Assembly: GCA_036676495.1 (NCBI GenBank)
Contig: JAKFCT010000047.1
Coordinates: 32,001 to 96,000, forward strand
Reading direction: 5' to 3'
From: Candidatus Sericytochromatia bacterium
GTDB taxonomy: Bacteria; Cyanobacteriota; Sericytochromatia; S15B-MN24; UBA4093
DNA: 64,000 bases
Part shown: positions 23,580-41,334 of the stretch, one piece after another
Position numbering within the stretch: the first letter of the stretch is position 1
How the letters are laid out: each line of letters begins with the position of its first letter
Made by a program: the position numbers and the translations under genes
The notes under the pieces: generated by a model
What the model saw: only the letters and a program-made list of their open reading frames with translations
What the model was told of the DNA's origin: nothing
Databases searched by the model: none

Positions 23580-23636
23580 GCAACCTCGGCCCGTGACAGG
23601 CCCCGGATTCGCCGGATCAGGAACGGCCGCCCCCTC

Positions 23637-23698
23637 ACGTTCAAGTCTCCCCGCGCCGTGAGGCGCTTTCACGAGGCTCAACATCTCGAGTGGCCATT
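23637..23698. repeat. Degenerate att-like junction (ychF-tail remnant + conserved motif)
   Basis: acgttcaag at 23637 and gctcaacatctcgagtggccatt at 23676, the same 39-nt offset as the sites at 35689 and 38638. Confidence 0.65.
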
Positions 23699-23831
23699 GC
23701 CACGTCGAAAGGGAGCACCCTCTTGTTCCGTTTGGCCGTAATTCTTGCTCGCTTGCTTCTAGGTCAGGAGACGCTCCGATTTGTAAGCTGTCGCCGTGAC
23801 ACAAAAACCCACCATCGACACGGAGACAAGC

Positions 23832-25505
23832 ATGAAAAATTTTCACCTGCTCCTCGCAACCACGGTAGCCACCACCCTCTTGGGGTGCCAGCAACTGGCA
23901 CATCCCCCCATGACCTCCCCCATCTCCTCGGAGGGCCCTGACGGCAAGACAGGCTTCAACCTGCAGAGCACCGCAACGCAAGCAGGGGACATCGCGTGGA
24001 ACCACCCGTTCGGAACAACTGCCCAAGACGAGGCCTTCGGGCTATCCGCCGCTGCCAACTTCCTGACGGTCGTCGGGCGCACGTACGGTACCTTTCCCGG
24101 ACAAAATGCCTCGGGGGGTAGCGATGCTTACGCCCGAAAATACGACGACAACGGGAACGAGGTTTGGACCCGACAGTTCGGATCGACGTCCGATGATCGA
24201 GCCAATGGCGTCGTGACGGATGCCAGCGGGAACAGCTACGTGGTGGGAAGCGCCAACGCGGCATTACCCGGACAAACTCCCGTCGGGGGGAGCGACGCCT
24301 ACGTCCGAAAATACGATATCAACGGCAACGAGGTTTGGACCCGACAATTTGGCACGCTCGATTTTGATGACGGCCTGAGCATCGCCCTCGACGATACCAA
24401 CCATCTTTATGTCGTTGGACAGACGTTCGGGACTTTGCCTGGGCAAACGAAGTTCGGACTCTTCAGTGCCGATGCGTACATTCGAAAATACGATGGCAAT
24501 GGAAACGAAGTTTGGACCCGACAGTTCGGAACGGGCGGCTCCGAGGTCGCGTTTTCCGTAACCGTGGATAGCGGCAGCGTCTACGTTGCAGGAACCGTGA
24601 GCGGGGTCTTTCTTCCGGAGAGCAATTCGGGAGGGTTTGATGCCTTTGTCAGGAAGTATGACGCGAACGGCAATGCGCTCTGGACCCGGCAGTTCGGTTC
24701 TTCCGCTATGGACCAAGTGAGCGGTGTTGCAGCCGACGCGACCGGCGTGTACCTCGCAGGCGTCACCGATGGAATCTTGCCGGGGCAAAGTAGCTCAGGC
24801 GCTCAGGATGCCTTTGTAAGACGGTACGACGCAAGTGGCAACGAGGTTTGGACCCGGCAGTTCGGTTCTTCCTCCATGGACCGAGCAAACGGTATTGCCG
24901 TCGATGCCTCCGGCGTGTACCTCGCAGGCGTTGCAGGCAGCGCGTTACCCGGGCAAACGAGCTCAGGGGGGAACGATGCCTATGTACGAAAATATGATGT
25001 CGCCGGGAATGAGCGGTGGACCCGACAGTTTGGCACCGCATCTTTCGATGTGGCTGAAGGTATTGCCGTCCTGGCTTCAGGGATCTATGTCGCAGGAACC
25101 ACCAGCGGACCAGGCGGGTTCGACGCCTTTGTCGCGAAGCTACTCAAGGAAGCGGCGATAGTCGAGGCCGTGATCGACATCAAGCCCGGGACCTTCCCCA
25201 ATAGCCTCAATCTTAAATCTAACGGCAGCGAGCCTGTCGCCATCATGGGCAGTGGCGACGTCGACGCCTCCCAAATCAACCTTTCGTCGGTTTCCCTGGC
25301 GGGGGCCGCCATATCCCGAAAGAAGAACGGAGCTTTCCATGTGTCTTTGCTGGATATCAATGGCGATGGCCGCCTCGATCTCTTGGCCCAATTTCCCACG
25401 AAGGACTTGCAGCTCTCCCCGATGGATACCGCGGCCACGCTCGAAGGTCAATTCAACGATGGCACCGCGTTCGAAGGCACTGATTCCGTCCGGATCGTGA
25501 ACTAG
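23832..25505 (+). CDS. Lipoprotein with SBBP-type beta-propeller repeats
   Basis: Lipobox LLGC. Seven ~55-aa repeats with DA(Y/F)VRKYD..GN..WTRQFG. C-terminal IDIKPG...N domain with a DxNGDGxLD motif. Confidence 0.85.
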   Translation: MKNFHLLLATTVATTLLGCQQLAHPPMTSPISSEGPDGKTGFNLQSTATQAGDIAWNHPFGTTAQDEAFGLSAAANFLTVVGRTYGTFPGQNASGGSDAYARKYDDNGNEVWTRQFGSTSDDRANGVVTDASGNSYVVGSANAALPGQTPVGGSDAYVRKYDINGNEVWTRQFGTLDFDDGLSIALDDTNHLYVVGQTFGTLPGQTKFGLFSADAYIRKYDGNGNEVWTRQFGTGGSEVAFSVTVDSGSVYVAGTVSGVFLPESNSGGFDAFVRKYDANGNALWTRQFGSSAMDQVSGVAADATGVYLAGVTDGILPGQSSSGAQDAFVRRYDASGNEVWTRQFGSSSMDRANGIAVDASGVYLAGVAGSALPGQTSSGGNDAYVRKYDVAGNERWTRQFGTASFDVAEGIAVLASGIYVAGTTSGPGGFDAFVAKLLKEAAIVEAVIDIKPGTFPNSLNLKSNGSEPVAIMGSGDVDASQINLSSVSLAGAAISRKKNGAFHVSLLDINGDGRLDLLAQFPTKDLQLSPMDTAATLEGQFNDGTAFEGTDSVRIVN

Positions 25506-25529
25506 ACGCAGCGATCGCGCCAGACAGCA

Positions 25530-25558
25530 AGAAGCCCAGGAACTCACCCTGGGCTTCT
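25530..25558 (+). terminator. Stem-loop, probable terminator
   Basis: agaagcccagg-aactcac-cctgggcttct immediately after the propeller gene. Confidence 0.7.
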
Positions 25559-25799
25559 CGTTAAGGAACGCGCGATAAGCTGATTGCTTCTGGCACAGCC
25601 CTTCGCCAGGGGAGCGGCCTTCTCCAGGCTATCGCAACTGGCCGAAAAACCCTTGACCCATGACCGAGGCCACTTCTCGAAATCCCCCCTATCATCGAGG
25701 CGATTGCCTCCCGAGCCGCGGGGCCTCTCGGATGGGAGGTCGGGCTATGGGCGGACGCTCGAGGCGCGAGCCCCAGCGGGCATGTGCGAGGGCCGTTCG

Positions 25800-26168
25800 A
25801 TGCCGGACAAGAGCAAGCAAGAGCTGGCCCTGGAGCGCACCGACCTGGCGATGGCGCGAACGTTGTTTGCCAAGCAGCGGACCTTCGCGGCGTGGGTCCG
25901 GACCGGCCTGTCCTCGATGAGCGTCGGCTTCGGCATCGTCAAGCTGCTCCCCGACGTGGAGCCCCGCTGGCTGGTCGTCACCCTGGGCTGCGTCATGATC
26001 GTCGTCGGCGGGTCCATGCAGGTCCTCGGCTTCGGCGGCTACTACCGCGCGCACATGCGCCTCGAGGCCGCCGGCACCCGGGGCCCGCGTCTCTGGATGC
26101 TGGCCATGATCGCCGGCGGCATGCTGCTTTGCGCGATCATCATGCTCGTGCTGGTCGCGCTGGCATGA
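25800..26168 (+). CDS. DUF202 (YidH-like) membrane protein
   Basis: LALERTDLA..RT....QRTFAAWVRTGL motif. Confidence 0.85.
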   Translation: MPDKSKQELALERTDLAMARTLFAKQRTFAAWVRTGLSSMSVGFGIVKLLPDVEPRWLVVTLGCVMIVVGGSMQVLGFGGYYRAHMRLEAAGTRGPRLWMLAMIAGGMLLCAIIMLVLVALA

Positions 26169-27049
26169 GCGCGCTGCTCGGCGCCCTCGCGCAGGTCTCG
26201 ATCCTGGTCTTCGCGGTCGCCAGCATGCTGACGGTCGGCCTCAGCTACACGATCGCCCAGATCCTCGCGCCCCTGAGAGACGGCCGCGCCGTCCTGCGCA
26301 CCCTGCTCGCCAACTTCGTCCTCGTGCCCCTCCTGGCCTATGTCCTCGTCCGGGCGCTCGCGCTCCCCGCGGGCGAGGCGATGGGGCTGATGCTGCTCGC
26401 GACGGCAGGGGGGGCGCCCTTCATGATCACGCTGACGGCGATCGCGGGGGGCAACATCGGGATGGCGGCGGGGCTGCTGGTCTTGCTGATCGTCGCGACC
26501 ATGGCGATCATGCCGATCATCGTGCCGCTGCTCACGCCCGACGTCGCGGTGGATGCCATGGCGATCGCCCTCCCCCTCGTCCTGTCGATGCTGCTGCCCC
26601 TCGTCACCGGGCTGATCCTCGACTCGCGGCACCCGCGCCTGGCCGAGCGCTTGCGTCCCGTCACGAACACGCTCTCGAACCTGGCGCTGATCGCGCTGGT
26701 CGCCTCCTTGGTGGCACTCCACCTGAACGCGATCCTGCCCCTCCTCACCGTGAAAAGCGTACTCGCCACGCTGGCCTTTCCCCTCGGCGCCCTCGGCATC
26801 GGGCACCTGCTGGAGAGGCGGGGGGTCATCACGGGCGAGGTCCTCGCGATCGGCACCGCGCAGCGCAACGTCGCGGCCGCCTTGGTGGTCGCCACCCAGA
26901 ACTTCGACGATCGCGCGATCACCCTCATGATCATCTTCGTCGAGATCGTCACGTTGGCCCTGCTCTTCTCGTTCGCATGGCTGATGCGCAAGCGAAGGCC
27001 GCCCGCCAAGACGGCGGCCCATGATCACGGCGCGCCCGGCGCGTCCTGA
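26165..27049 (+). CDS. Bile acid:sodium symporter (BASS) family transporter
   Basis: LLANFVLVPLLA, GGAPF, GTAQRNVAAALVVA. Confidence 0.85.
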   Translation: MSALLGALAQVSILVFAVASMLTVGLSYTIAQILAPLRDGRAVLRTLLANFVLVPLLAYVLVRALALPAGEAMGLMLLATAGGAPFMITLTAIAGGNIGMAAGLLVLLIVATMAIMPIIVPLLTPDVAVDAMAIALPLVLSMLLPLVTGLILDSRHPRLAERLRPVTNTLSNLALIALVASLVALHLNAILPLLTVKSVLATLAFPLGALGIGHLLERRGVITGEVLAIGTAQRNVAAALVVATQNFDDRAITLMIIFVEIVTLALLFSFAWLMRKRRPPAKTAAHDHGAPGAS

Positions 27050-27070
27050 TCGGCTAGTAAAGGAGTGACC

Positions 27071-28798
27071 ATGCCTCCGAACCTCCTGGTCCTGTGCGTC
27101 GATCAGTGGCAGCGCCACATGAAGTGGCCCCCCGGCTTTCGCTTACCGGCCGTCGAGCGCCTCGAGGCGCAAGGCGTCTCCTTCGATCGCTACTACTGCA
27201 ACGTCCAGATCTGCACGCCCGCGCGGGCGACGATGTGGACGGGCCTCCATGCCAAGCAGGTCGGCCTCTGGGACAACACCAACTTCGCCTGGATCCAGGA
27301 GCTGTCCCCCGAGATCGTGACCGTCGGGGACATGCTGCGCGAACAAGGCTACTACACCGCCTTCAAGGGGAAGTGGCACCTCTCGAACCTGCCGCTCGAC
27401 GAAAACGCGCTCGAGCCTTACGGCTTCTCGGACTACCAGCAATGGGGCGAGATGTACGGCAAGCCGCTGGAAGGGGAACTCGCGGACGATACGGCCGCCT
27501 TCGAGACCATCGACTGGCTGGAGCACCGGGGCGCCCGGCTGAAAAAGCCTTGGATGCTCGTCTGCAGCCTGCTCAACCCCCACGACATCATGTTCCTCCA
27601 GTCGGATCCGCTCGAGACGCCGCACCCGAACGGGATGATCCACGGCATGCAGTCCCGCGTCCAGCAACTCGGGTGGTTCCAGAAGGACTGGGAGGTCGAT
27701 TTGCCGGAGAATTTCGACGACGACCTCAGCCGCCAGCCCTATGGCGTCAGACACTTCAAGGAGTTCGTCGACCTCAACTACGGGCGGATCCCCGATGAAA
27801 GGCCCGATCTCTGGCGGGTACGCCGGAACTACCTCCTCAACTCCATGCGGCTCGTCGATCGCGAGTTTCAGCGGATCCTGGAGACGCTCGATCGCCTCGA
27901 CATGTGGAAGGACACAATCGTGATCCTGACGGGCGATCACGGCGAGATGAACGGCGCGCACCGGATGGCCCAGAAGGGCGCCATCACGTTCGACGAGGCC
28001 GGCATCGTCAACCTGACCGTCTGCGTTCCCGGCGGACCGCAGGGCCGGCGCACGGCCGCCGTCGGCTCGCACCTCGATCTCGTCCCGACCCTGCTCGCCT
28101 TCGCGGGCATGACCCCGGAGGCGATCGCCGCACGCTACCCCCAGCTGAAAGGGCGCAGCCTGAAGGACGTGATCCTGAACCCCGACCTCGACGGCCCGCA
28201 CGGTAGCACCAAGCGGCCGGGCGACGGCGTGCTGCTGGGCTGGGAAGGCCTGCACCAGCTCGACAACGACTGGGCCATCTCCGGCGCGCTGTGGGCCCTC
28301 ACGGACCTGTCCCTGGTCGGACGCGACGAAACGCCGGAGGCGCTCCAAGCACGCCTGCGGGCCGCGGGCGAGCGGTACGGCGCGCCTGACTTCAGCCGGC
28401 GAACCTTCTTCCGGGCCGTCATGGACGGTCGCTACAAGTTCGTGCGCTGGTTCAGCCCCCAGGAGTACACCCTGCCGACCAGCATCGAGGCCTTGTACGC
28501 CACGAGCGACGTGGCCCTCTACGACCTCGCGGAGGATCCCGGTGAGCTGGAAAACCTGGGAGATCCCCGCCATTCCCGGCACGATCCGGAGCGCGTCACC
28601 CGCATGCTCGCCAAGCTGAACGCGCTGATCCGGCAAGAACTGGGGGAGGACCAAGCGCCGTTCGACCTCGATCTCTTCGGCACGCGCGAGGTGAAGTACC
28701 GCCAGCCGGACTCCTCGCTCCGGGTCTCCTGGGCTCCGCCGCAACCCGAACCCAGCCGCCACGAGGGGCGCCCCCCGCATGAAAGGGCGGACGAATGA
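27071..28798 (+). CDS. Formylglycine-dependent sulfatase
   Basis: PNLLVLCVDQ, CTPAR (CxPxR), GKWHL, NPHD, GDHGEM. AAAGGAG RBS. Confidence 0.9.
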   Translation: MPPNLLVLCVDQWQRHMKWPPGFRLPAVERLEAQGVSFDRYYCNVQICTPARATMWTGLHAKQVGLWDNTNFAWIQELSPEIVTVGDMLREQGYYTAFKGKWHLSNLPLDENALEPYGFSDYQQWGEMYGKPLEGELADDTAAFETIDWLEHRGARLKKPWMLVCSLLNPHDIMFLQSDPLETPHPNGMIHGMQSRVQQLGWFQKDWEVDLPENFDDDLSRQPYGVRHFKEFVDLNYGRIPDERPDLWRVRRNYLLNSMRLVDREFQRILETLDRLDMWKDTIVILTGDHGEMNGAHRMAQKGAITFDEAGIVNLTVCVPGGPQGRRTAAVGSHLDLVPTLLAFAGMTPEAIAARYPQLKGRSLKDVILNPDLDGPHGSTKRPGDGVLLGWEGLHQLDNDWAISGALWALTDLSLVGRDETPEALQARLRAAGERYGAPDFSRRTFFRAVMDGRYKFVRWFSPQEYTLPTSIEALYATSDVALYDLAEDPGELENLGDPRHSRHDPERVTRMLAKLNALIRQELGEDQAPFDLDLFGTREVKYRQPDSSLRVSWAPPQPEPSRHEGRPPHERADE

Positions 28799-28842
28799 GC
28801 ACGGGAACCGCGGGGAGGGGCCGGCGGCGATCGCCCACCCGC

Positions 28843-28871
28843 TTGACGCCAAACACTGTTCGGCTTATAGT
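28843..28871 (+). promoter_or_regulatory. Sigma70-like promoter with overlapping operator ccaaacactgttcgg
   Basis: TTGACG-17nt-TATAGT. Operator at 28849-28863 nearly identical to 29510-29524. Confidence 0.75.
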
Positions 28872-28878
28872 CTGGAGT

Positions 28879-29484
28879 ATGGCAAACGAAGCACCGCGCG
28901 ATCGAAAGCGCCACCGCAGCCGCTCCCACATCCTGGCCGCGGCGCGCGAACTCATCCTGGAGAAGGGGGCCGAGGCCCTCTCCTTGCGGGAGGTGGCGGC
29001 GCGCGCCGGCTACAGCCCCGCCAGCCTCTACGAGTATTTCGACGGCAAGGACGACCTCGTCGCGACCCTGGTCGCCGAGTCCCATGCGCGTCTCAATGCC
29101 CGCATGCGCGCCCTCCCCACGGCGCTTCCGCCCCCCCGACGGCTGATTCGCCTGGGCCAGGCCTACCTGGCCTTCGCGCGCGAGAACCCCGAGGACTTCG
29201 CCCTCTTCTTCGGACGCACCCCCTCGAAACGTCAGGCCGCAGCCGACCCCGTCACGGGAAGCGCCTACGAGGTCCTTCGCGACGCGGTGGTCGCGGGCCT
29301 GGAGGACGGCACCATGAGGCCCGAAGCGGGAGGGGATGCCGAGGAAATCGCCTACGGCTTCTGGGCCCTGGCCCATGGGCTGGCGACCCTGCAACTCACG
29401 CATCTGCGGGGCTTTCAGGCGGACTTCGAGGCCGCGGACCTCCGGGCCCTGGAAACCTACGTGGCCGGCCTCATGCCGCGCTAG
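28879..29484 (+). CDS. TetR-family regulator
   Basis: ILAAARELILEKG...LSLREVAARAGYSPASLYEYF; WALAHGL. Confidence 0.92.
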   Translation: MANEAPRDRKRHRSRSHILAAARELILEKGAEALSLREVAARAGYSPASLYEYFDGKDDLVATLVAESHARLNARMRALPTALPPPRRLIRLGQAYLAFARENPEDFALFFGRTPSKRQAAADPVTGSAYEVLRDAVVAGLEDGTMRPEAGGDAEEIAYGFWALAHGLATLQLTHLRGFQADFEAADLRALETYVAGLMPR

Positions 29485-29509
29485 GACGGCTCTTTTTATT
29501 TACGCAAAA

Positions 29510-29524
29510 CCGAACACTGTTCGG
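29510..29524. promoter_or_regulatory. Second operator copy ccgaaca-c-tgttcgg
   Basis: Perfect 7-1-7 palindrome just upstream of the RBS of the next gene. Confidence 0.75.
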
Positions 29525-29537
29525 AGAAAGGACCGGT

Positions 29538-31043
29538 ATGACCCCGACCTGGTTTCGTTTCTGGTTGTTCCTGGGCGCAGGCCTGCTGATCGCCGCCCAA
29601 ATGCGCTGGCCCGTCTTCCTCGCAGGCTGGCTCGCTCCGCTGCCCTTCCTGATCGCCCTGCGGCACCGCCGCACGGCTCGACAGGGCTGGGAATGGGTAG
29701 CCGTCTACATGCTCGCCTGGGTTGCGGCGACGCTCAAGATCATCACCCCGCCCCTATCCCCCTTCATGGCCTTGGGCTTCGCCCTGCCCATCGGCCTGAT
29801 TCACATGCCCGCCTTCTGGCTCTGGGATCGCCTGGTCCGCAAGGGGCAGCACGCCTGGGCGATCCTGGCGTTCGCGAGCGCCACCGCGGTGCTGGAATGG
29901 CTGCAAGCGACCTTCACCCCGCTGACGTCTTGGGGAGCGAGCGCCCTCACCCAGCTGGACAACCTGCCGCTCCTGCAACTCGCCGCACTCGGTGGCCTCC
30001 CCCTGCTGGCCCTCCTGTTGAATGCGCTCCCCGCCACGCTGGAGTGGGCCGGTTCGCGCGCCTTCGATCGGCGTAGCCGCTGGGCGCTGGCCCTGTTTGG
30101 CCTGCTGTTCCTGGTCGCCCATGGCTGGGGAACGCTGCGCCTGGCGACGCCGCTTGCCGGCCCTCAGGTGCGCGTGGCCGCCGTGGCCACTGACGCGCGC
30201 TTCTCGGGCCCGCCCTTACCCGGTGCCGCCGAGGTGAAGCAATTCGAGCGCACCCTCTTCGAGCGGACCGAAAAGGCGGCAGGAATGGGCGCGCGGCTGG
30301 TGGTCTGGCCCGAAGGCTCCACCTTGGTCCAGACTTCCCAAGAAGCCGAGTTCCTGGCTCGGGTCTCCGAACTGGCCCGCCGCCTGCATGTCGAGCTGAT
30401 CGCCGCTTACGTCGTCCCGCTCTCGGATCAGCCCTTCCGGTACGAGAACAAATACCACTGGTTCGACGCCGAAGGGCGGGACCGCGAAACCTACTTCAAG
30501 CACGTGCCGGTGCCTGGCGAGCCCGCGGTGGCCGGCACGAGCCCACATAGGGCCCACCAGGCTCCATGGGGGCGCATGGCCGGGGCCATCTGCTACGACT
30601 ACGACGTGCCGCCTCTCGCCCGAACGCATGCACGCCTTGGAGTGGACCTGGTCGCCCTACCCTCCTCCGACTGGGCCGGGATCGATCCGATTCACACCCA
30701 GATGGCCGGGATCCGGGCCATCGAAGGAGGCTTCTCGCTGCTTCGCTCGACCCGCTTGGGCCTCTCCGCAGGGATGGATGCCCATGGCCGCATGCGTGCA
30801 TGGATGACGGACCTTGAGCCGAACGAGGGAGTCATGCTGGCCTCCTTACCCATGCAGCGGCTGGCGACCCCCTACAGTCGCTTGGGCGATTGGGTGATCG
30901 TGCCGAGCCTCGCCGTGCTCACCCTCGTCTTCGGACGGCTCTGGACCATGCGGCGGCGCCGGTGGGGGGCACGCGTCGCGGATCTGGCCCCTGAGCGCGC
31001 CGCCCTGGAGCCCGCCCAAGGCGGACGGCGCCCATCCGTTTAG
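29538..31043 (+). CDS. Membrane-bound nitrilase/CN-hydrolase family protein (Lnt-like)
   Basis: N-terminal TM helices. Glu-Lys-Cys triad in VWPEG, YFKHVPVPGE and AICYD. Confidence 0.85.
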   Translation: MTPTWFRFWLFLGAGLLIAAQMRWPVFLAGWLAPLPFLIALRHRRTARQGWEWVAVYMLAWVAATLKIITPPLSPFMALGFALPIGLIHMPAFWLWDRLVRKGQHAWAILAFASATAVLEWLQATFTPLTSWGASALTQLDNLPLLQLAALGGLPLLALLLNALPATLEWAGSRAFDRRSRWALALFGLLFLVAHGWGTLRLATPLAGPQVRVAAVATDARFSGPPLPGAAEVKQFERTLFERTEKAAGMGARLVVWPEGSTLVQTSQEAEFLARVSELARRLHVELIAAYVVPLSDQPFRYENKYHWFDAEGRDRETYFKHVPVPGEPAVAGTSPHRAHQAPWGRMAGAICYDYDVPPLARTHARLGVDLVALPSSDWAGIDPIHTQMAGIRAIEGGFSLLRSTRLGLSAGMDAHGRMRAWMTDLEPNEGVMLASLPMQRLATPYSRLGDWVIVPSLAVLTLVFGRLWTMRRRRWGARVADLAPERAALEPAQGGRRPSV

Positions 31044-31065
31044 AAGCCCGTCACCTCAGCCCCCT

Positions 31066-31113
31066 CGAGACAGAGCCACCGACCTTGAGTTTAGGGTCGG
31101 TGGCTCTGTCTCG
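31066..31113. terminator. Long perfect stem-loop (19-bp arms)
   Basis: cgagacagagccaccgacc ... ggtcggtggctctgtctcg. No clear U-tract. Confidence 0.7.
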
Positions 31114-31133
31114 TGCGCACGCTTGCTTCGAAC

Positions 31134-31178
31134 TTGCCTCTTTCCCACCCATGTATTACGATTCACCATATAGTGAAT
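31134..31178 (+). promoter_or_regulatory. Promoter with ArsR/SmtB-type operator
   Basis: TTGCCT-17nt-TACGAT, overlapped by the dyad ATTCAC-catata-GTGAAT (31161-31178). Confidence 0.7.
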
Positions 31179-31217
31179 TGATTGATTCGTGTCACCATGT
31201 CGAGCAGAGGTTTCTCG

Positions 31218-31859
31218 ATGAAGAACCAGACCAACGTGACCAAGTACCGCATCCTTGCCCCCATATACGACCGCCTCATGGGGCATCGCCTCTTTCGTGC
31301 GGCCAGACGGCGCGCGATCGGCCTCCTGGCGATCGCCCCCCGCGATCGCGTTCTGCTTGTCGGGGTTGGTACGGGCGAGGACTTGCCGTTTCTTCCTCCG
31401 ACGGCCAGCGTCGTCGGGATCGACCTCTCCGAGGAGATGCTCGCGGTCGCGCGCGCGAAGTCCCCCGCCGTCGAGTTGCGGGTCATGAACGCCGAAAAGC
31501 TGGAGTATCCGGAGTCCTCGTTCGATAAAGTCGTCCTCAACTTGGTGCTGAGCGTCGTCGAACATCCCGAGCAAGCTCTGGCGGAGGCCCTGCGCGTCCT
31601 CAAGCCGGATGGCCGGATCGTCGTTTTCGACAAGTTCCTTCCGGCGGGCGAAACGCCCCCATGGGCCCGGCGGATGCTCAATGTCATCACCTCATGGGTA
31701 GGAACCGACATCAATCGGCGCTTTGATGACCTGAGTAGAGGGCTGCCACTGCAGAAGGTGTCGAGCGAACCCTCCGTCTTCGGGGGAAGCTACCAGCTCA
31801 TCCTGCTTGGTAAGCGCAACACCCCGGTCTCACGACCTGAAGCCACGTCCCCTCGCTAG
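31218..31859 (+). CDS. Class I SAM-dependent methyltransferase (PmtA-like)
   Basis: YRILAPIYD, VGVGTG, GIDLSEEML, LSVVEHPE...RVLKPDG. Confidence 0.85.
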   Translation: MKNQTNVTKYRILAPIYDRLMGHRLFRAARRRAIGLLAIAPRDRVLLVGVGTGEDLPFLPPTASVVGIDLSEEMLAVARAKSPAVELRVMNAEKLEYPESSFDKVVLNLVLSVVEHPEQALAEALRVLKPDGRIVVFDKFLPAGETPPWARRMLNVITSWVGTDINRRFDDLSRGLPLQKVSSEPSVFGGSYQLILLGKRNTPVSRPEATSPR

Positions 31860-31880
31860 GGCGCGATCAAGGAGCGGATC

Positions 31881-32249
31881 ATGCAAGACACCAAACCCAG
31901 CGCGGATAGCTGCGAGATCTCCTACGTCCACGGGGAGACCGTCGAAGCGATCACCGCCGACATGCCCCCTCGAGAAGCCGTCTTCGCGATGGCCGAGACC
32001 TTCAAGCTATTGAGCGATCCCACGCGCCTCAAGCTCGTCCACGCCCTTTCGCGCGGCGAGCTCTGCGTCTGCGACCTGGCCGCAATGCTGGGGGTGGGCA
32101 GCACCGCAGTCTCGAACCATCTCCGGCTGCTTCGGGGCATGCGGCTGGTCAACTACCGGCGCCAAGGCAAGATGGCCTACTACTCACTCGCCGATGGGCA
32201 CATCACCCGCCTGCTGGCCGAATGCCTGGACCACGTCCAGGAACTTTGA
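31881..32249 (+). CDS. ArsR/SmtB metalloregulator (CadC/SmtB-like)
   Basis: FKLLSDPTRLK, ELCVCDLA, VSNHLRLLR, YYSLADGHI...LDH. Confidence 0.92.
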   Translation: MQDTKPSADSCEISYVHGETVEAITADMPPREAVFAMAETFKLLSDPTRLKLVHALSRGELCVCDLAAMLGVGSTAVSNHLRLLRGMRLVNYRRQGKMAYYSLADGHITRLLAECLDHVQEL

Positions 32250-32269
32250 CGCATCGGAGTAAACAACCT

Positions 32270-34396: not shown

Positions 34397-34541
34397 GGCC
34401 ATGACCTGCGGCTGTACCGCCCCCCTGGCGGCAAGGCCCTCGAGGACGGCGGAACAAAGCGCGAGGAGATCCCTTCGCTAGTCGGACGGAGGGTGGCTCA
34501 AGCCTTCGAGCGGGAGCTACCGCAGACGTCGCCCAGTCGCG

Positions 34542-35579
34542 CTAGGCCTTCAGGAAGGCAGAAAACGCCTTGAAGAGTAGGGTTTGAGCAGCATTGGGAA
34601 TCGATTGATTGATCATGCAAGCGCCCGAGATCCGATGGCCTTCTGCGGTGAAGGACCAACACGCGACCGAATAGCCCGGTCCTTCCCCGTTGTGGCCGAC
34701 AACCCGGCCAAATGGCATGGTCTCGACCATCAGGCCGAGGCCATAGCGAGGGTCTCGGCCCAGGGAAACCGCCCCTGGAACCGGGACCGCGGAGAGCATC
34801 TGCCCCAGCCAGAAGTCACCCAGCAAGCTGCCATTCGTCACTCCCTCCATGAGCCTGGCAAGCTCCAGGGCGGTCGAGCGAACAACCCCATGGGAGACCC
34901 AGCCTGGATCGTAGCGCGCAATGAGGTTCTCTCGGTCAGGGCCCCCCTCAAACCCGGGAGTCAAGTCGCTGGCATCGGCACGGCGAGAGGCGAACCGTGT
35001 CTCGGTCAAGCCGAGGGGAACCACGATCCGGGAAGCCAAGCTCTCGTCAGGGGTTTGGCCACCGGCCGCCTCGATGATCCGGCGGATCAGCATGTAGCCG
35101 AGGTTCGAATAGCTCCAACCCTGCCCCGGCGCGAACAACAGCGTCGCGTCCGACAGCAACTCCATGAAACGGCTCGGCTCCCAAGCCGTCTCTGGAGATG
35201 TCCGAACCGCTTGTCGGTAGCGCGACATCCCACCGTAATCCGGCATGCCACTTGTGTGGTTAAGCAGCTGGCGCACGGTAATGGGGGCTAGGACATGTAA
35301 ATCGGGAAGCCAGGCGCGGATAGGACTATCGAGTTCGAGGCGGCCCGCTTCCGACAACTGCAGCGCGAGGGTGGCCAGCACCGACTTAGTGACGCTGTAG
35401 GCATAGAACTTGGCATCGGGTCGTTCCGCCAGCTCGCCAATCCCCACCCTGAACTTGGCCTCGCCATCGACGAGCAAGGCCACGGTGGCTCCAAGCGCGC
35501 CCGTCTCGACCAGCGACTGTTCGAGGAGCGCGTGAAGCGGGATGCTCGATGGATTTACGCGCGGAAACTCGGGGGGCAT
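34542..35579 (-). CDS. Serine hydrolase (beta-lactamase/D-peptidase family)
   Basis: SVTK (SxxK), LLNHTSG, YSN, GHNG. Start uncertain because the frame stays open up to 35708. Confidence 0.88.
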   Translation of the reverse strand: MPPEFPRVNPSSIPLHALLEQSLVETGALGATVALLVDGEAKFRVGIGELAERPDAKFYAYSVTKSVLATLALQLSEAGRLELDSPIRAWLPDLHVLAPITVRQLLNHTSGMPDYGGMSRYRQAVRTSPETAWEPSRFMELLSDATLLFAPGQGWSYSNLGYMLIRRIIEAAGGQTPDESLASRIVVPLGLTETRFASRRADASDLTPGFEGGPDRENLIARYDPGWVSHGVVRSTALELARLMEGVTNGSLLGDFWLGQMLSAVPVPGAVSLGRDPRYGLGLMVETMPFGRVVGHNGEGPGYSVACWSFTAEGHRISGACMINQSIPNAAQTLLFKAFSAFLKA

Positions 35580-35688
35580 CAAGAACTCCTCGAGGACCAA
35601 ACTACGACCGGATACCTGGGTGCCGAATACGCGGCTCCCCTGTCGGTGGGCAAGGGCACCGAGGAAGGGATGGGATAACCGGTGTTGA

Positions 35689-35750
35689 ACGTTGAACCGG
35701 AAGTGCATGACGTTGCACGTATTGTCGGTTCAATGGTTCGAGGGGCCACT
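35689..35750. repeat. att-like junction: copy of ychF 3' end + conserved motif
   Basis: acgttgaaccggaagtgcatgac matches 40241-40263 at 22/23 nt, then N16, then gttcaatggttcgaggggccact. Confidence 0.9.
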
Positions 35751-35891
35751 GTTTTGACCGTGAACGATCCGGCGAATGAGGCTCGCGCCATGGGGCCCTT
35801 CGCGAGCTACAAGCTGCCGAGCCTTGGGGGAGGGGACCATGATAGAATGCGGGGGCGCGCATTCGTGGTATCGGTGTGATTTTGGGGAAAA

Positions 35892-38177
35892 GTGGCTCTG
35901 CAGCATGGGACATGGCTTAGGTTCCTGAGGTCGGTCCTACCCCGGGAGGCTCGTGGCGGCCGGGGGGGCTGGTCACTTAGCCTTCGCTCTCGCCTGTTGT
36001 TACTGGTCCTCTTTTCGGTCGTGCCGGCCATGGGGCTGATGGTCCGCTCGGCCGCCGAGCAGCGCCAGATGGCGCTGAACGAGGCCCGCCAGAGCGCCTT
36101 TGCCCTCATACGACCCGCTTCTTTTCAATACGACCGCATCATCCAGGAGACTCGGCAGTTGCTGGTGCTCTTGGCGGCACATCCCCAGTTGCTCGATCCG
36201 CGAAAGCCGGACTGTCACGAGTTCCTGGCCTCCGTGCGGGACAAGTACCCCTACTATGCCAACATCGCCATGCTCAATCGCCAAGGGGAAGTCACGTGCA
36301 GTGCCATCCCGTTCTCCGGCAAGCTCGATTTGAGGCGATTGCCGCACGCCGAGCGCGCCATGCGCACCGGAGAGCTCGCCATCGGCGACTATGAGATCGG
36401 CCCCATCTCGAATCAGGCGGTGCTAGGCTTCATGTACCCGATTCGCGAGGCCGATGGGCGAATCACGGGGGTTCTGGGCGCCACGGTGCAATTGTCGTGG
36501 CTCAGTCAGCTGGCGGCGCAGGCCCACTTGCCGCCCGGATCAGCCGTGATGCTGGTGGATCACAACGGCAAGGTGCTCGCAGTCCAACCGCATCCGGAAG
36601 CGTGGGTCGGGAAGAACGTCGCCCGCTTGCCGGTCGTCCGGACGATCCTCGAACAGAAGTCCGGGGTGGTCGAGGGGCTGGGGCCGGATGATCAAGAGCG
36701 ACTCTATTCGTTTTCCCCCTTGGGAGGGGATCCCGACGTCCCCAGCGCCTACCTGGCGGTCGGAATTCCCCGTCAAGTGGCCTTCGCCAAGGCCGACGCG
36801 ATGCTCGGCCGCAACCTGGCAGGCATGGGGTTGATCGGCTTGTTCAGTTTGCTCGTGGCCTGGATCATGGGCGATTGGTTCGTGTTACGCAAGGTTCAGA
36901 CGCTGATCAATGCCACCAAACGCCTGGCGAGCGGAGACTTGAGCGTTCGGACCGGCATGCCCCGAGGGGGCGATGAGTTTGCGCGGCTGGCCTTCTCGTT
37001 CGACGAGATGGCCGAGGCCCTCGAAGGCCTCACGCAACGCTACGAGCTGATCCTGAATTCGGCGGGAGAGGGAATCTACGGCGGCGATCGCGACGGCGTC
37101 ATCCAGTTCATCAATCCGACCGCCGCACACATGGTCGGCTACGAAGTCGAGGAGTTGGTCGGCCGGAACGGACATGCGCTGCTTCATCACTCCCGACCGG
37201 ACGGGTGCCCCTATCCTGCCTCCGAGTGTCCGGTGCTTCAAACGGTGCAGGACGGCCGGGTCCGTTCGGTGACAGACGAGGTATTCTGGCGCAAGGACGG
37301 CTCCATGTGTCCAATCGAATACCTCGTCTCCCCCATCCGCAAGGGCGGTCACATCGTGGGCGTCGTGCTCCTCATCAAGGATCTCAGCGAGCGGAGGAAA
37401 GCCGAGCTGGAGCAAACCCGGCTCAAGAGGCGCGAAGAGGCCGCCCACGCCGAGCTTGAGGCGGTCAAGCAGCTTGATGCCATGAAGAACAACTTCGTCA
37501 ACGCCGTCTCCCACGATCTCCGGACGCCCCTGACCTCCATCATGGGCTATGCCGAGTTCCTCGACGAGGAGATTGCGGGGCCTCTGACGCCCCAGCAGCG
37601 CGACTTCATCACCCAGATCGAGCGAGGCGCCAAGCGGCTCGAGTTCCTGGTCAACGATCTCCTCGACTTCGCCCGCCTGGACGCCGGGACCTTCGCGCTG
37701 CGACGGGAACCCATCGACCTGCGTACCGCCATTCAAGCAATCAGCGAGAGCGCCCAACCGCAAGCGGCGGACGCCCACGTCGCCATCCAGGTCGATTTGC
37801 CGGACGAGTCTTTGGTCGCCATGCTGGATGCGCCCCGCATCGAACGCGTGCTGTCCAATCTCCTCAGCAATGCCCTCAAATTCTCGCCAGCCGGCGGTAC
37901 GATCCGGATCCGGGCCTACAACGAGGCCGGTTCGCTGTATGCCGAGGTGGTGGATCAGGGCCCCGGCATCATTCCTGAGGACCTACCGAAGTTGTTCCAT
38001 CGCTTTGCTCAGCTTGCGGATGGCCAGCGCAAGGGTGGGACGGGCCTCGGCTTGAGCATCAGCAAGGCGATCATCGAGGCGCATGGCGGCCAAATTGGGG
38101 TGCGCAGCCAGGTGGGCGTCGGCAGCACGTTCTGGTTCCGGGTACCGCTCGATGTGGCGGACAAGGGGGCCGCGTGA
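35892..38177 (+). CDS. Membrane sensor histidine kinase (Cache-like, HAMP, PAS, HisKA, HATPase)
   Basis: Two TM segments, PAS (FWRKDGS), SHDLRTPL, NLLSNALKFS, DQGPGI, GTGLGL. Start uncertain. Confidence 0.92.
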   Translation: MALQHGTWLRFLRSVLPREARGGRGGWSLSLRSRLLLLVLFSVVPAMGLMVRSAAEQRQMALNEARQSAFALIRPASFQYDRIIQETRQLLVLLAAHPQLLDPRKPDCHEFLASVRDKYPYYANIAMLNRQGEVTCSAIPFSGKLDLRRLPHAERAMRTGELAIGDYEIGPISNQAVLGFMYPIREADGRITGVLGATVQLSWLSQLAAQAHLPPGSAVMLVDHNGKVLAVQPHPEAWVGKNVARLPVVRTILEQKSGVVEGLGPDDQERLYSFSPLGGDPDVPSAYLAVGIPRQVAFAKADAMLGRNLAGMGLIGLFSLLVAWIMGDWFVLRKVQTLINATKRLASGDLSVRTGMPRGGDEFARLAFSFDEMAEALEGLTQRYELILNSAGEGIYGGDRDGVIQFINPTAAHMVGYEVEELVGRNGHALLHHSRPDGCPYPASECPVLQTVQDGRVRSVTDEVFWRKDGSMCPIEYLVSPIRKGGHIVGVVLLIKDLSERRKAELEQTRLKRREEAAHAELEAVKQLDAMKNNFVNAVSHDLRTPLTSIMGYAEFLDEEIAGPLTPQQRDFITQIERGAKRLEFLVNDLLDFARLDAGTFALRREPIDLRTAIQAISESAQPQAADAHVAIQVDLPDESLVAMLDAPRIERVLSNLLSNALKFSPAGGTIRIRAYNEAGSLYAEVVDQGPGIIPEDLPKLFHRFAQLADGQRKGGTGLGLSISKAIIEAHGGQIGVRSQVGVGSTFWFRVPLDVADKGAA

Positions 38178-38578
38178 GCCCGTGACGGTGACATCCCTTG
38201 ATCCTCGAGGCCAAAGCCCATGCGTCCTCTTCCCCATGAGCACGGGTTCGAAGGTGTGGAATTCCAGCTCGCGAACCGAACCGCATGGGGTTCCAGAGCA
38301 GTTTGAAGAGACCGCGCAGGCCAGCGCGCTGCCGTACGAGGCGGATTCCTTCGGCGACGATGCCCATGGCCGTTCCATCATGCGGCCGTCCCGCGGGGAC
38401 CTCAAGCGGCACCTGACTTTCCTCAAGGGCGAGTCCCGGCGTGCGCGCTTCGCGAAAGAAACATCCTGGGCTGAGTTCCTGCTTAGCCTGCCCGCCAAGT
38501 AAGTAGAGGGACAAGTAACGAGAGCCTGACGTGAAGCCGAGTTCCCGTTTGGTTCGCGGGTCGCCACGGCTCGGAGCC

Positions 38579-38622
38579 ATGCAAAGCGGGCAGAGCATCC
38601 AGCCACTCTGACCGCTTTGCAT
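38579..38622. terminator. Stem-loop just downstream of the displaced ychF stop copy
   Basis: atgcaaagcgg..cagag / ctctg..ccgctttgcat, 11 nt from the TAA of the 38634-38660 copy. Confidence 0.6.
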
Positions 38623-38637
38623 TGGGCTGCAGTTTAG

Positions 38638-38699
38638 ACGTTGAAGCGGAAGTGCATGACAACACCCTTTCGTACCGTTCAACACTTCGAGTGGCCACT
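38638..38699. repeat. att-like junction: copy of ychF 3' end + conserved motif
   Basis: acgttgaagcggaagtgcatgac is identical to 40241-40263 (23/23; minus strand reads VMHFRFNV*), then N16, then gttcaacacttcgagtggccact. Confidence 0.92.
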
Positions 38700-38931
38700 T
38701 CCCCTCGTAACGACGCCAACCCTCCTAGGCTCCAAGGGGTAGGGCGACGCAACGCTTCCTGGTACGTCGGCTCCTACGCAAACGGGTATCCGGCGCTCAA
38801 GCGATAGAACGCACGCCCCCGTTGTCCCAGAGGAATATGCCTAGCCCTAGGCGAAGCGGCGCAGATCGGTGGAGGGTACGGGCGCGTGACTCCAGGCGGA
38901 ACACTACAATGGCTATGCGAGGAGGGGACAT

Positions 38932-39387
38932 ATGCCTGAATCACGAGTCTCACGAACAACGGATACCCCGAAGGGTTCGCGAAGCATCCAGCTGGGCCTG
39001 CTGGTCCTGCATGTTTTCGTTTCGCTGGGAGCCCTCTATGGCGGAGGCCTCCTTAGCCTGTTTCCAGACGGCTCGGCCTTGGGCACGCCGCTGGAGATGC
39101 TGCGCTACACGCCCTTTCCGGACTTCCGGATACCCGGCTTGATTCTCTTCTGGGTCATCGGGGTCGGCCACATGGTCGCCGGCATTGCGATCATGCGGCA
39201 TCCTGCAAGGGCTTGGTTGCTGACGGCGGTCATGGGGCTCGTGCTCATGGGCTGGATCGTGATCCAGGTCCTCTTGATTCGCGGATCTCACGGAGTCCAC
39301 TTCCTGTACTTCGGGCTTGGGCTTGTGATTTGCGGGGCAGGCGTCTCGCTTTGGCCGCGGATGAAAAGTCGGAGCAGGCGGGGATAA
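38932..39387 (+). CDS. Hypothetical 4-TM membrane protein
   Basis: GGAGG RBS, four hydrophobic segments, TPFPDFRIPGLILF motif. Confidence 0.75.
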   Translation: MPESRVSRTTDTPKGSRSIQLGLLVLHVFVSLGALYGGGLLSLFPDGSALGTPLEMLRYTPFPDFRIPGLILFWVIGVGHMVAGIAIMRHPARAWLLTAVMGLVLMGWIVIQVLLIRGSHGVHFLYFGLGLVICGAGVSLWPRMKSRSRRG

Positions 39388-39665
39388 GAGCGTCTTGCCG
39401 TACGTTGAGCCCCAAAGAGAAGGGCTCCGCCTCCTACGCCCACGCAATCGCGTGAGGGCGTTCCTCGTCGTTCGCCCAGATCGGGCCTCGAAACACGGCT
39501 GCCCCATGAACGCCGATAACGGCCGATCCCTCAGCCTGAGCACCACACTCCGAACAACACCCCCTTCGTTTTCGGGTGGTCGAGATTAGACGCAGAAATC
39601 GCGACGCCCTTTAGGCTGATCCGAAAAGGATTCGTGGCTCAACTCGTCGACGGGAGGCACTTAGG

Positions 39666-40223
39666 TTGAAGGAAACCATTGATTCCGAGCTTCTGATTAC
39701 GGCGCTCAAAACCGCCGGAGTCAAACTGGACCCAGGTCTAACCGACGCCGAAGTAGCCGCTATTGAACGCACCTTCGGGATACGCTTCCCACACGACCTC
39801 AAGAGGTTGCTACAACATGCCCTTCCGGTCGGCGACCGCTTTCCCAACTGGCGTCAGGATTCCCAAGAGCTTCGGGACCAGCTCAATTGGCCGATTCAAG
39901 GGATCTTCTTCGATATCGAGCAGAGTGACTTTTGGTGGCCCGGCTGGGGAGCGAAGCCAGCGTCACTAACGGAAGCATTGAGCATTGCAGCCGGTGAGTT
40001 GTGGCGCGTTCCAATCTTGATCCCGATCTACGGGCACCGCTACATTCCGATGGAACCCCAGGAATCGGGAAACCCCATCTTCTCTGTGTACCAAACCGAC
40101 ATCATCTACCATGGTTGCAACCTCGCGGACTACCTTCACAACGAGTTTGCCTTGGATACTCCGACCGTCCCAAAGACATCACCTCGCCCCATACGGTTCT
40201 GGGACGAGGTGATCGAGCGCTAA
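39666..40223 (+). CDS. SMI1/KNR4 (SUKH) family protein
   Basis: GLTDAEVAAIERTFGIRFPHDL, LIPIYGHRY, GNPIFSVYQTDII. GGAGG before the TTG start. Confidence 0.82.
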   Translation: MKETIDSELLITALKTAGVKLDPGLTDAEVAAIERTFGIRFPHDLKRLLQHALPVGDRFPNWRQDSQELRDQLNWPIQGIFFDIEQSDFWWPGWGAKPASLTEALSIAAGELWRVPILIPIYGHRYIPMEPQESGNPIFSVYQTDIIYHGCNLADYLHNEFALDTPTVPKTSPRPIRFWDEVIER

Positions 40224-40236
40224 TCGATATTGATAT

Positions 40237-41334
40237 CTATACGTTGAAGCGGAAGTGCATGACGTCGCCGTCCTTGACCTCGTAGGTCTTCCCTTCGAGG
40301 CGAAGGAGGCCCTTCTCCTTGGCGGCGGTTTCCGAGCCGCAGGTGACCAGGTCATGGTAGGCGGTGACCTCGGCCCGGATGAAGCCGCGCTCGAAGTCGG
40401 TGTGGATGACGCCGGCGGCGCCCGGAGCGAGCGTTCCGCGGGTGATGGTCCAGGCCCGCACCTCCTTGACCCCGGCGGTGAAGTAGGTGATGAGGTCGAG
40501 GATCCGGTAGGTCGAGCGGATCAGCTTATTCAGGCCGCTCTCGGCGACGCCCAGGTCCGAAAGGTACTCGACGGCTTCCTCGGGGCTGAGCTGGGCGAGC
40601 TCGGACTCGATCTGCGCCGAGATGGTGACGACCTCGGCCTTCTCGGAGGCCGCGAACTCCTTGACCTTCTGGACCAGGGGGAGGTTCTCGGCGTCGGCCA
40701 GGTCTCCCTCGGCCACGTTGGCGGCGTAGATCACGGGCTTGTTGGTGAGCAGGGGAACCTGCTTCATGATGACCAGCTCCTCGGGGGAGAGATCCGCCGT
40801 GCGCGCCCACTTGCCCTCATCGAGCTGGGCTTTGATCTTCTCGAGGACGTCGACCAGGGCGGCCGCCGCCTTGTCGCCGGACTTGGCAGGCTTGCGGTTG
40901 CGCTCGAGGATCTTCTCGACGGTGCCGAGGTCCGCGAGGGCCAGCTCGAGGTTGATGGTCTCGATGTCGCGGATCGGATCGACTCCGCCCTCGACGTGGG
41001 TGATGTTGCCGTCCTCGAAGCAGCGGACCACCTCGACGATGGCATCCACCTCGCGGATATGCGCGAGGAACTGGTTGCCGAGCCCCTCGCCCTGGCTGGC
41101 GCCGCGCACCAGGCCGGCGATGTCCACGAACTCGATGGCGGTCGGGATGACGGTCGTGGTCTTGACGATGCCCTGGAGCACGCCGAGCCGCTCGTCCGGC
41201 ACCGTGACGACGCCGACGTTCGGGTCGATGGTGGCGAAGGGGTAGTTCGCAGCGAGGGCGCCCGCCCGGGTCAATGCGTTAAAAAGGGTCGATTTGCCGA
41301 CGTTGGGAAGGCCGACGATTCCTGCGCGAAGCAA
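40237..41334 (-). CDS. ychF: Redox-regulated ribosome-binding ATPase YchF
   Basis: GLPNVGKST, ANYPFATIDPN, DIAGLV, TGS domain, C-terminus GDVMHFRFNV. Confidence 0.97.
   Translation of the reverse strand: MLRAGIVGLPNVGKSTLFNALTRAGALAANYPFATIDPNVGVVTVPDERLGVLQGIVKTTTVIPTAIEFVDIAGLVRGASQGEGLGNQFLAHIREVDAIVEVVRCFEDGNITHVEGGVDPIRDIETINLELALADLGTVEKILERNRKPAKSGDKAAAALVDVLEKIKAQLDEGKWARTADLSPEELVIMKQVPLLTNKPVIYAANVAEGDLADAENLPLVQKVKEFAASEKAEVVTISAQIESELAQLSPEEAVEYLSDLGVAESGLNKLIRSTYRILDLITYFTAGVKEVRAWTITRGTLAPGAAGVIHTDFERGFIRAEVTAYHDLVTCGSETAAKEKGLLRLEGKTYEVKDGDVMHFRFNV

Follow-up and report, generated by a model that had tools for sequence, protein, structure and literature searches.

Tandem gene cassettes and a conserved junction site at the 3′ end of ychF in Sericytochromatia

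Stacks of foreign genes at the 3′ ends of housekeeping genes are known in staphylococci, streptococci and Dehalococcoides, and at least some members of those stacks carry a recombinase. The staphylococcal cassette chromosome (SCC) elements, for example, integrate at the 3′ end of the housekeeping gene rlmH (orfX), regenerate the site, and form composite stacks bounded by repeats of the integration site; some of them lack ccr genes and are reliant on Ccr supplied in trans. Sericytochromatia are an uncultured, non-photosynthetic sister lineage of the cyanobacteria. Here, an array of gene blocks delimited by displaced copies of the 3′ end of ychF is described from a 64,000-nt stretch of a Candidatus Sericytochromatia genome (GCA_036676495.1, contig JAKFCT010000047.1, positions 32,001 to 96,000), referred to below as the window. 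The window's contig (108 kb) belongs to the metagenome-assembled genome (MAG) of a soil bacterium (G000; 92% complete, 6.7% contamination, 4,135,875 nt in 106 contigs), and positions given without a contig prefix follow the numbering of the window. A preliminary description, made from the sequence alone, had proposed an integron-like cassette array without an integrase, stacked on the end of ychF by repeated capture.

By analogy, the closest described systems are tandem accretion with its cis-mobilizable elements (CIMEs), the SCC elements, and the ssrA islands of Dehalococcoides. In tandem accretion involving integrative and conjugative elements (ICEs) of the ICESt1/ICESt3 type, as outlined in one account, repeats of the target gene's 3′ end separate the elements, attachment sites are kept while integration and transfer genes are lost, the gene end is restored, and the stack grows at the gene-proximal site (PMC5704250). 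The ssrA islands are reported as tandem insertions downstream of a single-copy housekeeping gene, marked by a repeat of about 20 bp from its 3′ end and by an adjacent motif absent from the gene; an integration module of six genes, among them one for a CcrB-like serine recombinase, is present in 16 of the 31 islands and absent from the rest, and the system is portrayed as ancient, found throughout the lineage and a major contributor to differences between strains (PMC3146451). Among the elements reported to integrate at ychF are pipolins with large serine recombinases; by that account, pipolins encode their own recombinase and piPolB and occur in other phyla, and in this they differ from the array at hand (PMC11551731). 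A literature search combining Sericytochromatia with integrons found no paper, and one on ychF as an integration site or genomic-island target gave none on Sericytochromatia among the matches listed. As far as the cited accounts characterize these systems, the units downstream of ychF resemble CIMEs in being bounded by direct repeats of the ychF 3′ end, with the gene restored, and in being without integrase and transfer genes. They resemble the ssrA islands in combining a gene-end repeat with an adjacent conserved motif that the gene does not have.

The target gene, ychF (365 aa; 40237-41334, minus strand), was identified by Pfam matches to YchF-GTPase_C (132.9 bits) and MMR_HSR1 (80.4 bits). 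It is intact in G000, with orthologues in five relatives that are 84-94% identical. Its last 23 nt, the resident tail (40241-40263 in plus-strand numbering), encode ...VMHFRFNV. The preliminary description had reported copies of this tail at 38638 (23/23) and 35689 (22/23), and both were confirmed: a search of the window at up to 3 mismatches gave 3 matches, compared with none in 100 shuffles. A motif, GYTCAANNNYTCGAGNGGCCAYT (GYTCAA-N3-YTCGAG-N-GGCCAYT), also had three matches in the window at up to 2 mismatches (23676, 35728 and 38677) and none in shuffles, and it starts 39 nt after the tail start at each of the three displaced copies. The resident tail is adjoined by ychF coding sequence, with neither arm nor motif. 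The constant spacing claimed for the displaced copies, and its absence at ychF itself, both stand.

Module 1 (38634-38699; nhmmer E=1e-18) comprises the stop codon, a 23/23 tail (38638-38660), a 16-nt spacer with the right half-site (38661-38676) and the motif (38677-38699). Module 2 (35685-35750; E=4.9e-15) has its tail at 35689-35711 (22/23), followed by the spacer and the motif at 35728-35750; the lone change in its tail, CGC to CGG, is synonymous (Arg). Module 3 (23633-23698) forms the distal end of the G000 array and is decayed, its tail (23637-23659) agreeing at 10/23 positions while the spacer and the motif (23676-23698) are kept. What had been noticed as a trace of the tail at 23637 is a full 66-nt module by the profile (E=1.3e-6 genome-wide). 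The motif-only remnant of a further module lies at the 3′ end of a hydrolase gene (34494-34516), its tail and spacer gone. Of its 23 positions, 20 agree with the motif of a module in a relative, G012 (L014:4369), that lies downstream of the orthologous hydrolase gene, and the homology block shared with G012 stops at 34498; the profile match there (34493-34521) is weak by itself (E=0.76). Because of this junction remnant, the 12-kb stretch that the preliminary description had treated as one cassette is composite, with at least two units. When the nhmmer profile, built from 22 modules, was run on the whole G000 genome, four matches at E<=2.6e-6 were obtained, one at each of the three modules and one at the end of ychF itself. 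The rest of the genome held nothing comparable, the next match (E=0.027) being without the motif. Across the whole assembly the motif is confined to the three window sites, and the tail occurs only at the ychF locus, besides one 4-mismatch match on contig C30.

Alignment of the 22 modules revealed a conserved stretch of about 66 nt, from the ychF stop codon to GGCCRCT, with abrupt divergence beyond it. The tail sequence GRAAGTGC returns in inverted form in the spacer, as GCACTTYC, with an 8-nt centre (ATGACGNC) between the two. An outer pair, GTTGAA/TTCAA, is likewise inverted, its arm-side box being set 4 nt farther out, an offset that resembles the half-site geometry of large serine recombinase sites but is given no weight here. 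Pairing between the repeats was seen in 79.4% of cells, versus 28-43% with one side slid; against column shuffles the values were 79.4% versus 78.2%, with 80 of 500 shuffles reaching the observed value and no covariation. With pairing no better than in column shuffles, the repeats fit a pair of protein-binding half-sites on duplex DNA and lend no support to a folded site. ychF itself has the left half-site and the centre, with coding sequence in place of the right half-site. The left half is alike in gene and module, and insertion therefore restores the same gene end together with a module of donor layout. The self-renewing site put forward in the preliminary description is supported in this respect, since the ychF end is regenerated with the same sequence after insertion; the resident tail acts as the regenerated attachment site.

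To date the site family numbers 22 modules, 19 of them in five species-level genomes from two genera of one family (three in G000, six in G016, three in G017, five in G011 in addition to tail-only copies, and two in G012) and three at metagenome loci. The spacing from tail to motif is constant in 21 of the 22. Within the order, 4 of 27 genomes contained the motif when up to 1 mismatch was allowed, the reversed control giving 1 match, and a tail-like 23-mer stood 16 nt ahead of the motif in 8/8 matches. Among 47 genomes of the class, linked multi-copy tails were found only in G000, G016, G017, G011 and G012; a second tail copy in G027 was a 3-mismatch match on another contig. Of 401 genomes sampled from the phylum, only the five array genomes had exact matches to the tail-plus-motif pattern (10 in all); a single 1-mismatch match fell outside them, and 2-mismatch matches were about as frequent as in the control. 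Searches of public genome contigs matched 5 stretches (3 true and 2 by chance, L018 and L020), the matches being Candidatus Sericytochromatia, and searches of metagenome contigs matched 8 (3 true and 5 by chance, L036, L038, L039, L042 and L043); stretches without the ychF tail were scored as chance. In G016, G017, G011 and G012, ychF shares its contig with the array, which is found downstream of the gene in the same orientation. Exceptions to this layout are one G016 module in mid-contig on C55, one at the start of C3, and one inverted module at locus L040. G009, of the same family and another genus, has the resident tail only and no array; a putative decayed tail after yebC in G012 was not counted, an identical sequence following yebC in G009. 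The junctions are thus a genuine conserved site family, tied to ychF and not widespread, and the site system is real, conserved and lineage-specific. The preliminary description had also proposed that site decay increases with distance from ychF. This was observed in G000 (0, 1 and 13 differences) and G017 (0, 2 and 3) but not in G016 (1, 1, 4 and 0), G011 or G012, and such polarity is not general across the relatives.

Serial replacement of the gene end predicts that displaced tails were once working ychF ends. Tail differences were counted in the 15 modules with 1-7 of them (two fully decayed and five identical copies were excluded), and 24 of the 55 differences from consensus were synonymous in the ychF frame, compared with 14.5% expected (binomial p=1.8e-7). 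The Arg codon of the displaced tails occurs in five forms (CGC, CGG, CGA, AGG and AGA). Given this excess of synonymous differences, the displaced tails were formerly working ends of ychF.

Comparison between species indicated where the arrays depart from a common order. yebC directly follows ychF in G009 and G012 and is therefore the likely native neighbour; it follows two cassettes and a module in G017, and in G011 it is preceded by a ProRS gene with a tail-only repeat boundary. On its distal side the G000 array is flanked by a stretch from topoisomerase to HAD hydrolase (17105-23574) that is syntenic with G017 C106:1512-9293, the synteny ending 63 nt before the decayed module. Module 1 and the G017 module L011:11359 have homologous distal flanks (38309-38495 in the window) and different proximal cassettes; the tails of both orthologous modules read 23/23, at 38638 in G000, although the neighbouring intergenic DNA no longer aligns. 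G017 module L011:8787 and G011 module 9235 have their proximal cargo (DUF1801) in common and different distal flanks. The hydrolase gene stands after a module in G000 and ahead of one in G012, and blocks beside a module are exchanged between G016 C55 and G017. Locus L040, which is 90% identical to G011, lacks yebC-tgt-helicase-DUF1801, exactly the segment between two tails, and its helicase gene adjoins the inverted module. Homology between G009 and G011 ends 6 nt from a tail. By a strict criterion, cross-species synteny passes through none of the displaced modules; when 2.5 kb is allowed, it crosses 2 of 12 informative module gaps versus 42 of 77 plain gaps (Fisher p=0.027), both crossed module gaps being, per the block coordinates, the yebC-sized difference between G011 and G017. 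Ends of homology blocks fall near modules in 27 of 217 cases versus 4.7% of the sequence, a lenient null because block ends and modules both fall between genes. Synteny between species thus tends to break at modules, and the relatives differ at the level of cassettes with breakpoints at the sites, as the preliminary description had anticipated. Housekeeping genes (yebC, tgt, the DEAD-box helicase gene and that for ProRS) are present within the relatives' arrays; because of these genes, one inverted module and one unlinked to ychF, the arrays have been reshuffled and not only stacked.

Several observations concern the genes involved in these rearrangements. The ProRS gene, with a ProRS-C_1 domain, lies between ychF and yebC (L012:3498-5087 in G011; L040:3990-5696) and has as its boundary a tail copy with neither arm nor motif, suggestive of another type of insertion at the ychF site. 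G000 has no ychF-linked yebC (88-94% identical among relatives), its sole copy being 54% identical (C23:2897-3604); a true loss is not certain, the MAG being 92% complete. The DEAD-box helicase ORF of G011 has, at L012:8717-8737, a tail-like end (...RFNV stop), and the G000 orthologue (~14103) ends ...PLSQP; from these two readings the G011 gene seems to be fused to a displaced tail.

The preliminary description had seen no recombinase open reading frame in the window, and this extends to the whole of the window's contig and to the ychF contigs of the four array-bearing relatives. In G000, PF00589 had 5 matches (C30, C42 and three on C67) and PF00239 had 3 (C20, C104 and C22), none of them on the window's contig; five relatives had 24 PF00589 and 13 PF00239 matches, none on a ychF contig. 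The window's contig also lacks matches to rve, IS110 and Y1 transposase. A Pfam scan of 50 proteins, about 40 of them inside arrays, detected no recombinase, transposase, relaxase or phage structural family. The array proteins are ordinary accessory or core proteins, including kinases, regulators, transporters, a sulfatase, methyltransferases, aminotransferases, Fic, HNH, ProRS, tgt and the DEAD-box helicase. Two G000 tyrosine recombinases, on C30 and C42, pass the XerD/XerC equivalog cut-offs (345.5 and 366 bits) and constitute the Xer pair, and two such high-scoring proteins occur in every relative examined, including G009. The integron integrase model TIGR02249 had no match in G000 above its cut-off (best 170.3 bits versus 265). 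The large serine recombinases of G000, on C20 and C104, have no module nearby.

Two further recombinase loci were noted in the course of this search. Within 13 kb of C67 (22000-35500; L031) there are three genes for tyrosine recombinases, one of which has an N-terminus like that of an excisionase; no ychF-type site is nearby, and this is probably a separate mobile element. On C22, a 262-aa CcrB-like protein with Resolvase and Recombinase domains (L046:1232-2020, minus strand) adjoins mutS2 (L046:2176-3498) and is present family-wide. Its N-terminal motif, at the position of the catalytic serine in serine recombinases, reads YLWIHPEQ. The protein resembles a recombinase that has been inactivated and retained for a different function; it was rejected as the enzyme acting on the sites, the nucleophile serine motif being replaced and the protein being present in array-less G009 as well.

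We regard it as probable, on balance and not strongly so, that segments were integrated repeatedly and site-specifically into a ychF end that regenerates itself, that shuffling among the sites followed, and that the recombinase acted in trans. Repeated insertion and later recombination among sites are favoured jointly by the site anatomy, the breakpoints and the coding past of the tails. Each module of about 66 nt would be the far junction left by a segment that had entered ychF within its last 23-28 nt. Such a segment would bring its own copy of the ychF end beside a conserved arm, consisting of the right half-site GCACTTYC and then GYTCAA-N3-YTCGAG-N-GGCC. We infer a crossover in or near the centre, through which the segment's copy would become the new ychF end, the gene staying intact and the target being regenerated; the old end would be pushed outward and joined to the arm, and repetition would stack cassettes. 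Because every module has the presumed donor-site layout, any two sites could recombine again, and such recombination would lead to excision, re-insertion at ychF, swaps and occasional inversion. The enzyme would act in trans, since it is not encoded in or near any array. Its source may be a helper element absent from these assemblies or the host, and it may belong to the tyrosine recombinases or to the Ccr/DsiB-like large serine recombinases.

A number of results weigh against site-specific integration with an enzyme in trans. No recombinase has been identified: one co-occurring with the motif, as sought by the preliminary description, was not found in cis, and all-against-all comparison of the non-Xer recombinases of six genomes gave none common to the array bearers (the one non-Xer tyrosine recombinase of G016 is unrelated to the single one of G012). 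No free donor element was found, viral contigs searched with three patterns giving 0 matches and plasmid and phage collections searched with the 70-nt module giving none; a helper element may be unbinned, all genomes being MAGs. Neither was a circular or excised form seen. Assembled contigs from the source run cover 22895-42288 in a plain tiling, without any other junction arising at a tail. A contig from another run (X3) joins the tail, via a variant arm and motif, to 38210, and was judged uninformative, its sides being 31 and 22 nt only. Furthermore, the statistical support from breakpoints is modest, relatedness makes the genomes non-independent as samples, and there are boundaries without a detectable module, e.g. 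near 34400 beside the ATPase gene and at 25556. The interleaved housekeeping genes and the arm-less tail-only junctions (in G011 at L012:5119, 8717-8737 and L022:8365) would require extra events.

The alternative that survives best, although we consider it unlikely, is that the blocks are the remains of larger integrase-bearing ICEs, integrative and mobilizable elements (IMEs) or prophages inserted at ychF, the classical route to CIMEs and tandem accretion. Decay of autonomous islands is documented as the origin of such tandems in the account of tandem accretion (PMC5704250), and the coexistence of ssrA islands with and without the serine-recombinase module is in line with it (PMC3146451). G000 likewise contains internal remnants, namely the 3′ fragment of a peptidase gene (38309-38495) and the motif-only remnant at 34494, because of which deletions inside cassettes must have happened. 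Nevertheless, none of the at least 22 junction-bounded units in the five genomes retains a recombinase, and the roughly 40 array proteins scanned include no relaxase, type IV secretion system (T4SS), phage or transposase remnant. Several units consist of one ordinary gene in 0.65-3 kb (those of the hydrolase and the kinase, and a 154-aa gene flanked by G011 modules 9235 and 9948), and housekeeping genes between the sites also count against decay of larger islands. Known tandems, by the published account, usually hold a functional or recognisably decayed ICE or IME, whereas the units here are without recombinase or backbone remnant, range down to one gene and are interleaved with housekeeping genes (PMC5704250). 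In comparison with the ssrA islands as reported, the recombinase module is lacking, the target is ychF and not ssrA, and the lineage is another one (PMC3146451). At least some of the stacked elements of the SCC and ssrA-island kind bear Ccr/DsiB-type recombinases, and no PF00239 match lies on the ychF contigs. The arrays differ from SCC elements in having no Ccr-type enzyme nearby, the sole family-wide CcrB-like protein being without its catalytic serine, and in sites unrelated in sequence. No array scanned held a helper element or backbone remnant, an absence that, in MAGs, is no proof.

Somewhat less likely again is that the locus is a chromosomal gene-capture platform, an integron analogue built from different parts, in which the ychF end would be the attachment site, the modules would be cassette-borne sites kept intact by selection, the 23/23 tails at 38638 and in its G017 orthologue being an example, and a remote host enzyme would cut out, insert and reorder the cassettes along with the housekeeping genes among them. 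Candidates for such an enzyme would be the Xer pair or some recombinase outside the families covered by the searches. Integron arrays may exist without an adjacent integrase, as in the clusters of attC sites lacking integron-integrases (CALINs; PMC4889954), and the likeness to integrons extends to cassettes each ending in an imperfect palindrome of about 60 nt, one fixed attachment point and a shuffled order. The differences are these: there is no IntI beside the attachment point (no PF00589 match on the window's contig, and the best TIGR02249 score of 170.3 bits is below 265), no covariation that would support a folded site, and an attachment point that is the coding end of a gene. Cassettes here hold 1-7 or more genes on either strand with their own signals, in place of promoterless, co-oriented single open reading frames. 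The term integron-like, as used in the preliminary description, therefore holds by analogy only, given IntI scores under the cut-off, the lack of covariation, and multi-gene cassettes of mixed orientation.

Use of the sites by the host XerC/XerD pair, as with Acinetobacter dif modules or integrative mobile elements exploiting Xer (IMEX), would explain the missing dedicated recombinase, but we consider it improbable. The Xer pair comprises the only catalytically plausible recombinases common to all array-bearing genomes, and in the module a short centre is flanked by two arms in inverted order. The dif centre, however, is 6 nt, against 8 nt in the module. The likeness of the module to canonical dif is unconvincing, the left arm being partly alike by eye and the right arm not, and a dif-like search of G000 returned no canonical site and no second site of the module's palindrome type, with the limit that a canonical query may not fit the host dif. 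The pair is present in G009 as well, which has no array. Acinetobacter Xer-dif modules (PMC6449649) are likewise small and without recombinase, with short two-armed sites shuffled by a host enzyme in trans, and they differ in that the sites here are unlike dif, direct instead of alternating, chromosomal and tied to ychF. More improbable still is an origin without a dedicated recombinase, by homology-facilitated illegitimate recombination anchored in the conserved ychF (its DNA, 81-90% identical across genera, could anchor incoming DNA, and the arm-less junctions at the G011 ProRS insertion and the tail-like helicase end fit a single site type less well) and then spread by gene conversion or homologous recombination, since illegitimate joins would scatter, whereas the duplicated segment has constant boundaries, from the stop codon to the GAC/GTC centre, and is joined at fixed spacing to a conserved arm absent from ychF in 21 of 22 copies.

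The cargo of the G000 array is divided by the modules into four blocks. The cassette nearest ychF (38700-40236, plus strand; GC 58.9%) encodes a 151-aa membrane protein with about four hydrophobic segments (38932-39387) and an SMI1/KNR4-like protein (39666-40223) whose match is weak (23.6 bits, under the 25.4 cut-off). The next cassette (35751-38633, plus strand) contains a Cache-HAMP-PAS histidine kinase gene (35892-38177) and the 3′ remnant of a clostripain-family peptidase gene (~38309-38495), which has 73% nucleotide identity to L011:10733-10919, the matching G017 gene being a Peptidase_C11 gene. The serine hydrolase cassette (34517-35684, minus strand) encodes a protein of the beta-lactamase family (Pfam Beta-lactamase, 173 bits). 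Its open reading frame was called at 34542-35708 on the minus strand, with an N-terminal extension reaching into the tail copy, and the true start is probably near 35600; the gene is 84% identical in nucleotide sequence to a G012 gene situated between yebC and a module. The distal block (23699-34493, plus strand) holds seven genes, encoding an SBBP propeller (23796-25505), an SBF/ACR3-like transporter (25784-27049), a sulfatase (27065-28798), an Lnt-like protein (28779-31043), a methyltransferase (31182-31859), ArsR (31881-32249) and a heavy-metal P-type ATPase (32222-34396). The SBBP gene is 77.5% identical in nucleotide sequence to a G009 gene located 8-9 kb downstream of ychF, with homology starting 12 nt past the motif. 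Outside the array, the conserved distal flank ends with a HAD hydrolase gene (22857-23579, plus strand; Pfam HAD_2). Pfam bore out the cargo annotation of the preliminary description, with a lesser strength for SMI1/KNR4. Its statement that several blocks are more AT-rich applies to the three ychF-proximal blocks (GC of 58.9% at 38700-40236, 63.5% at 35751-38637 and 62.8% at 34520-35688, with flanks at 66-67%) but not to the distal block (65.3% at 23700-34490).

Some additional features of the array and its surroundings were recorded. Within the SBBP propeller gene, at 24069-25100, there are about six DNA repeats of 168-171 nt with mutual identities of 66-84%. A palindrome just distal to Module 1 (38573-38630), with a weak match to a miRNA model, and another forming a perfect 19-nt hairpin after the Lnt-like gene (31066-31113) are probably terminators. 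An Rfam scan of the modules matched no family, the only matches (E 0.12-0.36) falling at the palindrome at 38573-38630, and a search of the array for tRNA and tmRNA found none. In another metagenome (run X4), a 2.6-kb contig carries the kinase gene (window 35803-38178) at about 92% identity; both its flanks are unlike those of the window, placing the histidine kinase gene in a different context in a relative. Upstream of ychF, a stretch common to genus g1 (41397-42882) comprises a HigB-like toxin gene (41702-41998) with a small partner open reading frame (41397-41705), a stand-alone GIY-YIG nuclease gene (41925-42290) and a gene for a helix-turn-helix protein (42382-42882) that is 93-95% identical between species, exceeding the conservation of ychF.

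The arrays described here differ from the known tandems in that no member at all bears a recombinase, in the small size of their units, and in the core genes that lie between the sites. The system spans two genera; its sites are well preserved and number at least 22, and a recombinase in cis is lacking. If it is true that a host or helper enzyme runs it, the system would be an independent invention of integron logic, with a fixed entry point, portable sites and reordering, and it would offer two defined partner sites, ychF end and module, for testing in E. coli; a bench test is worthwhile because these two substrate sites are now defined. For the Sericytochromatia themselves, the module system explains much of the difference in gene content between these species at the ychF locus.

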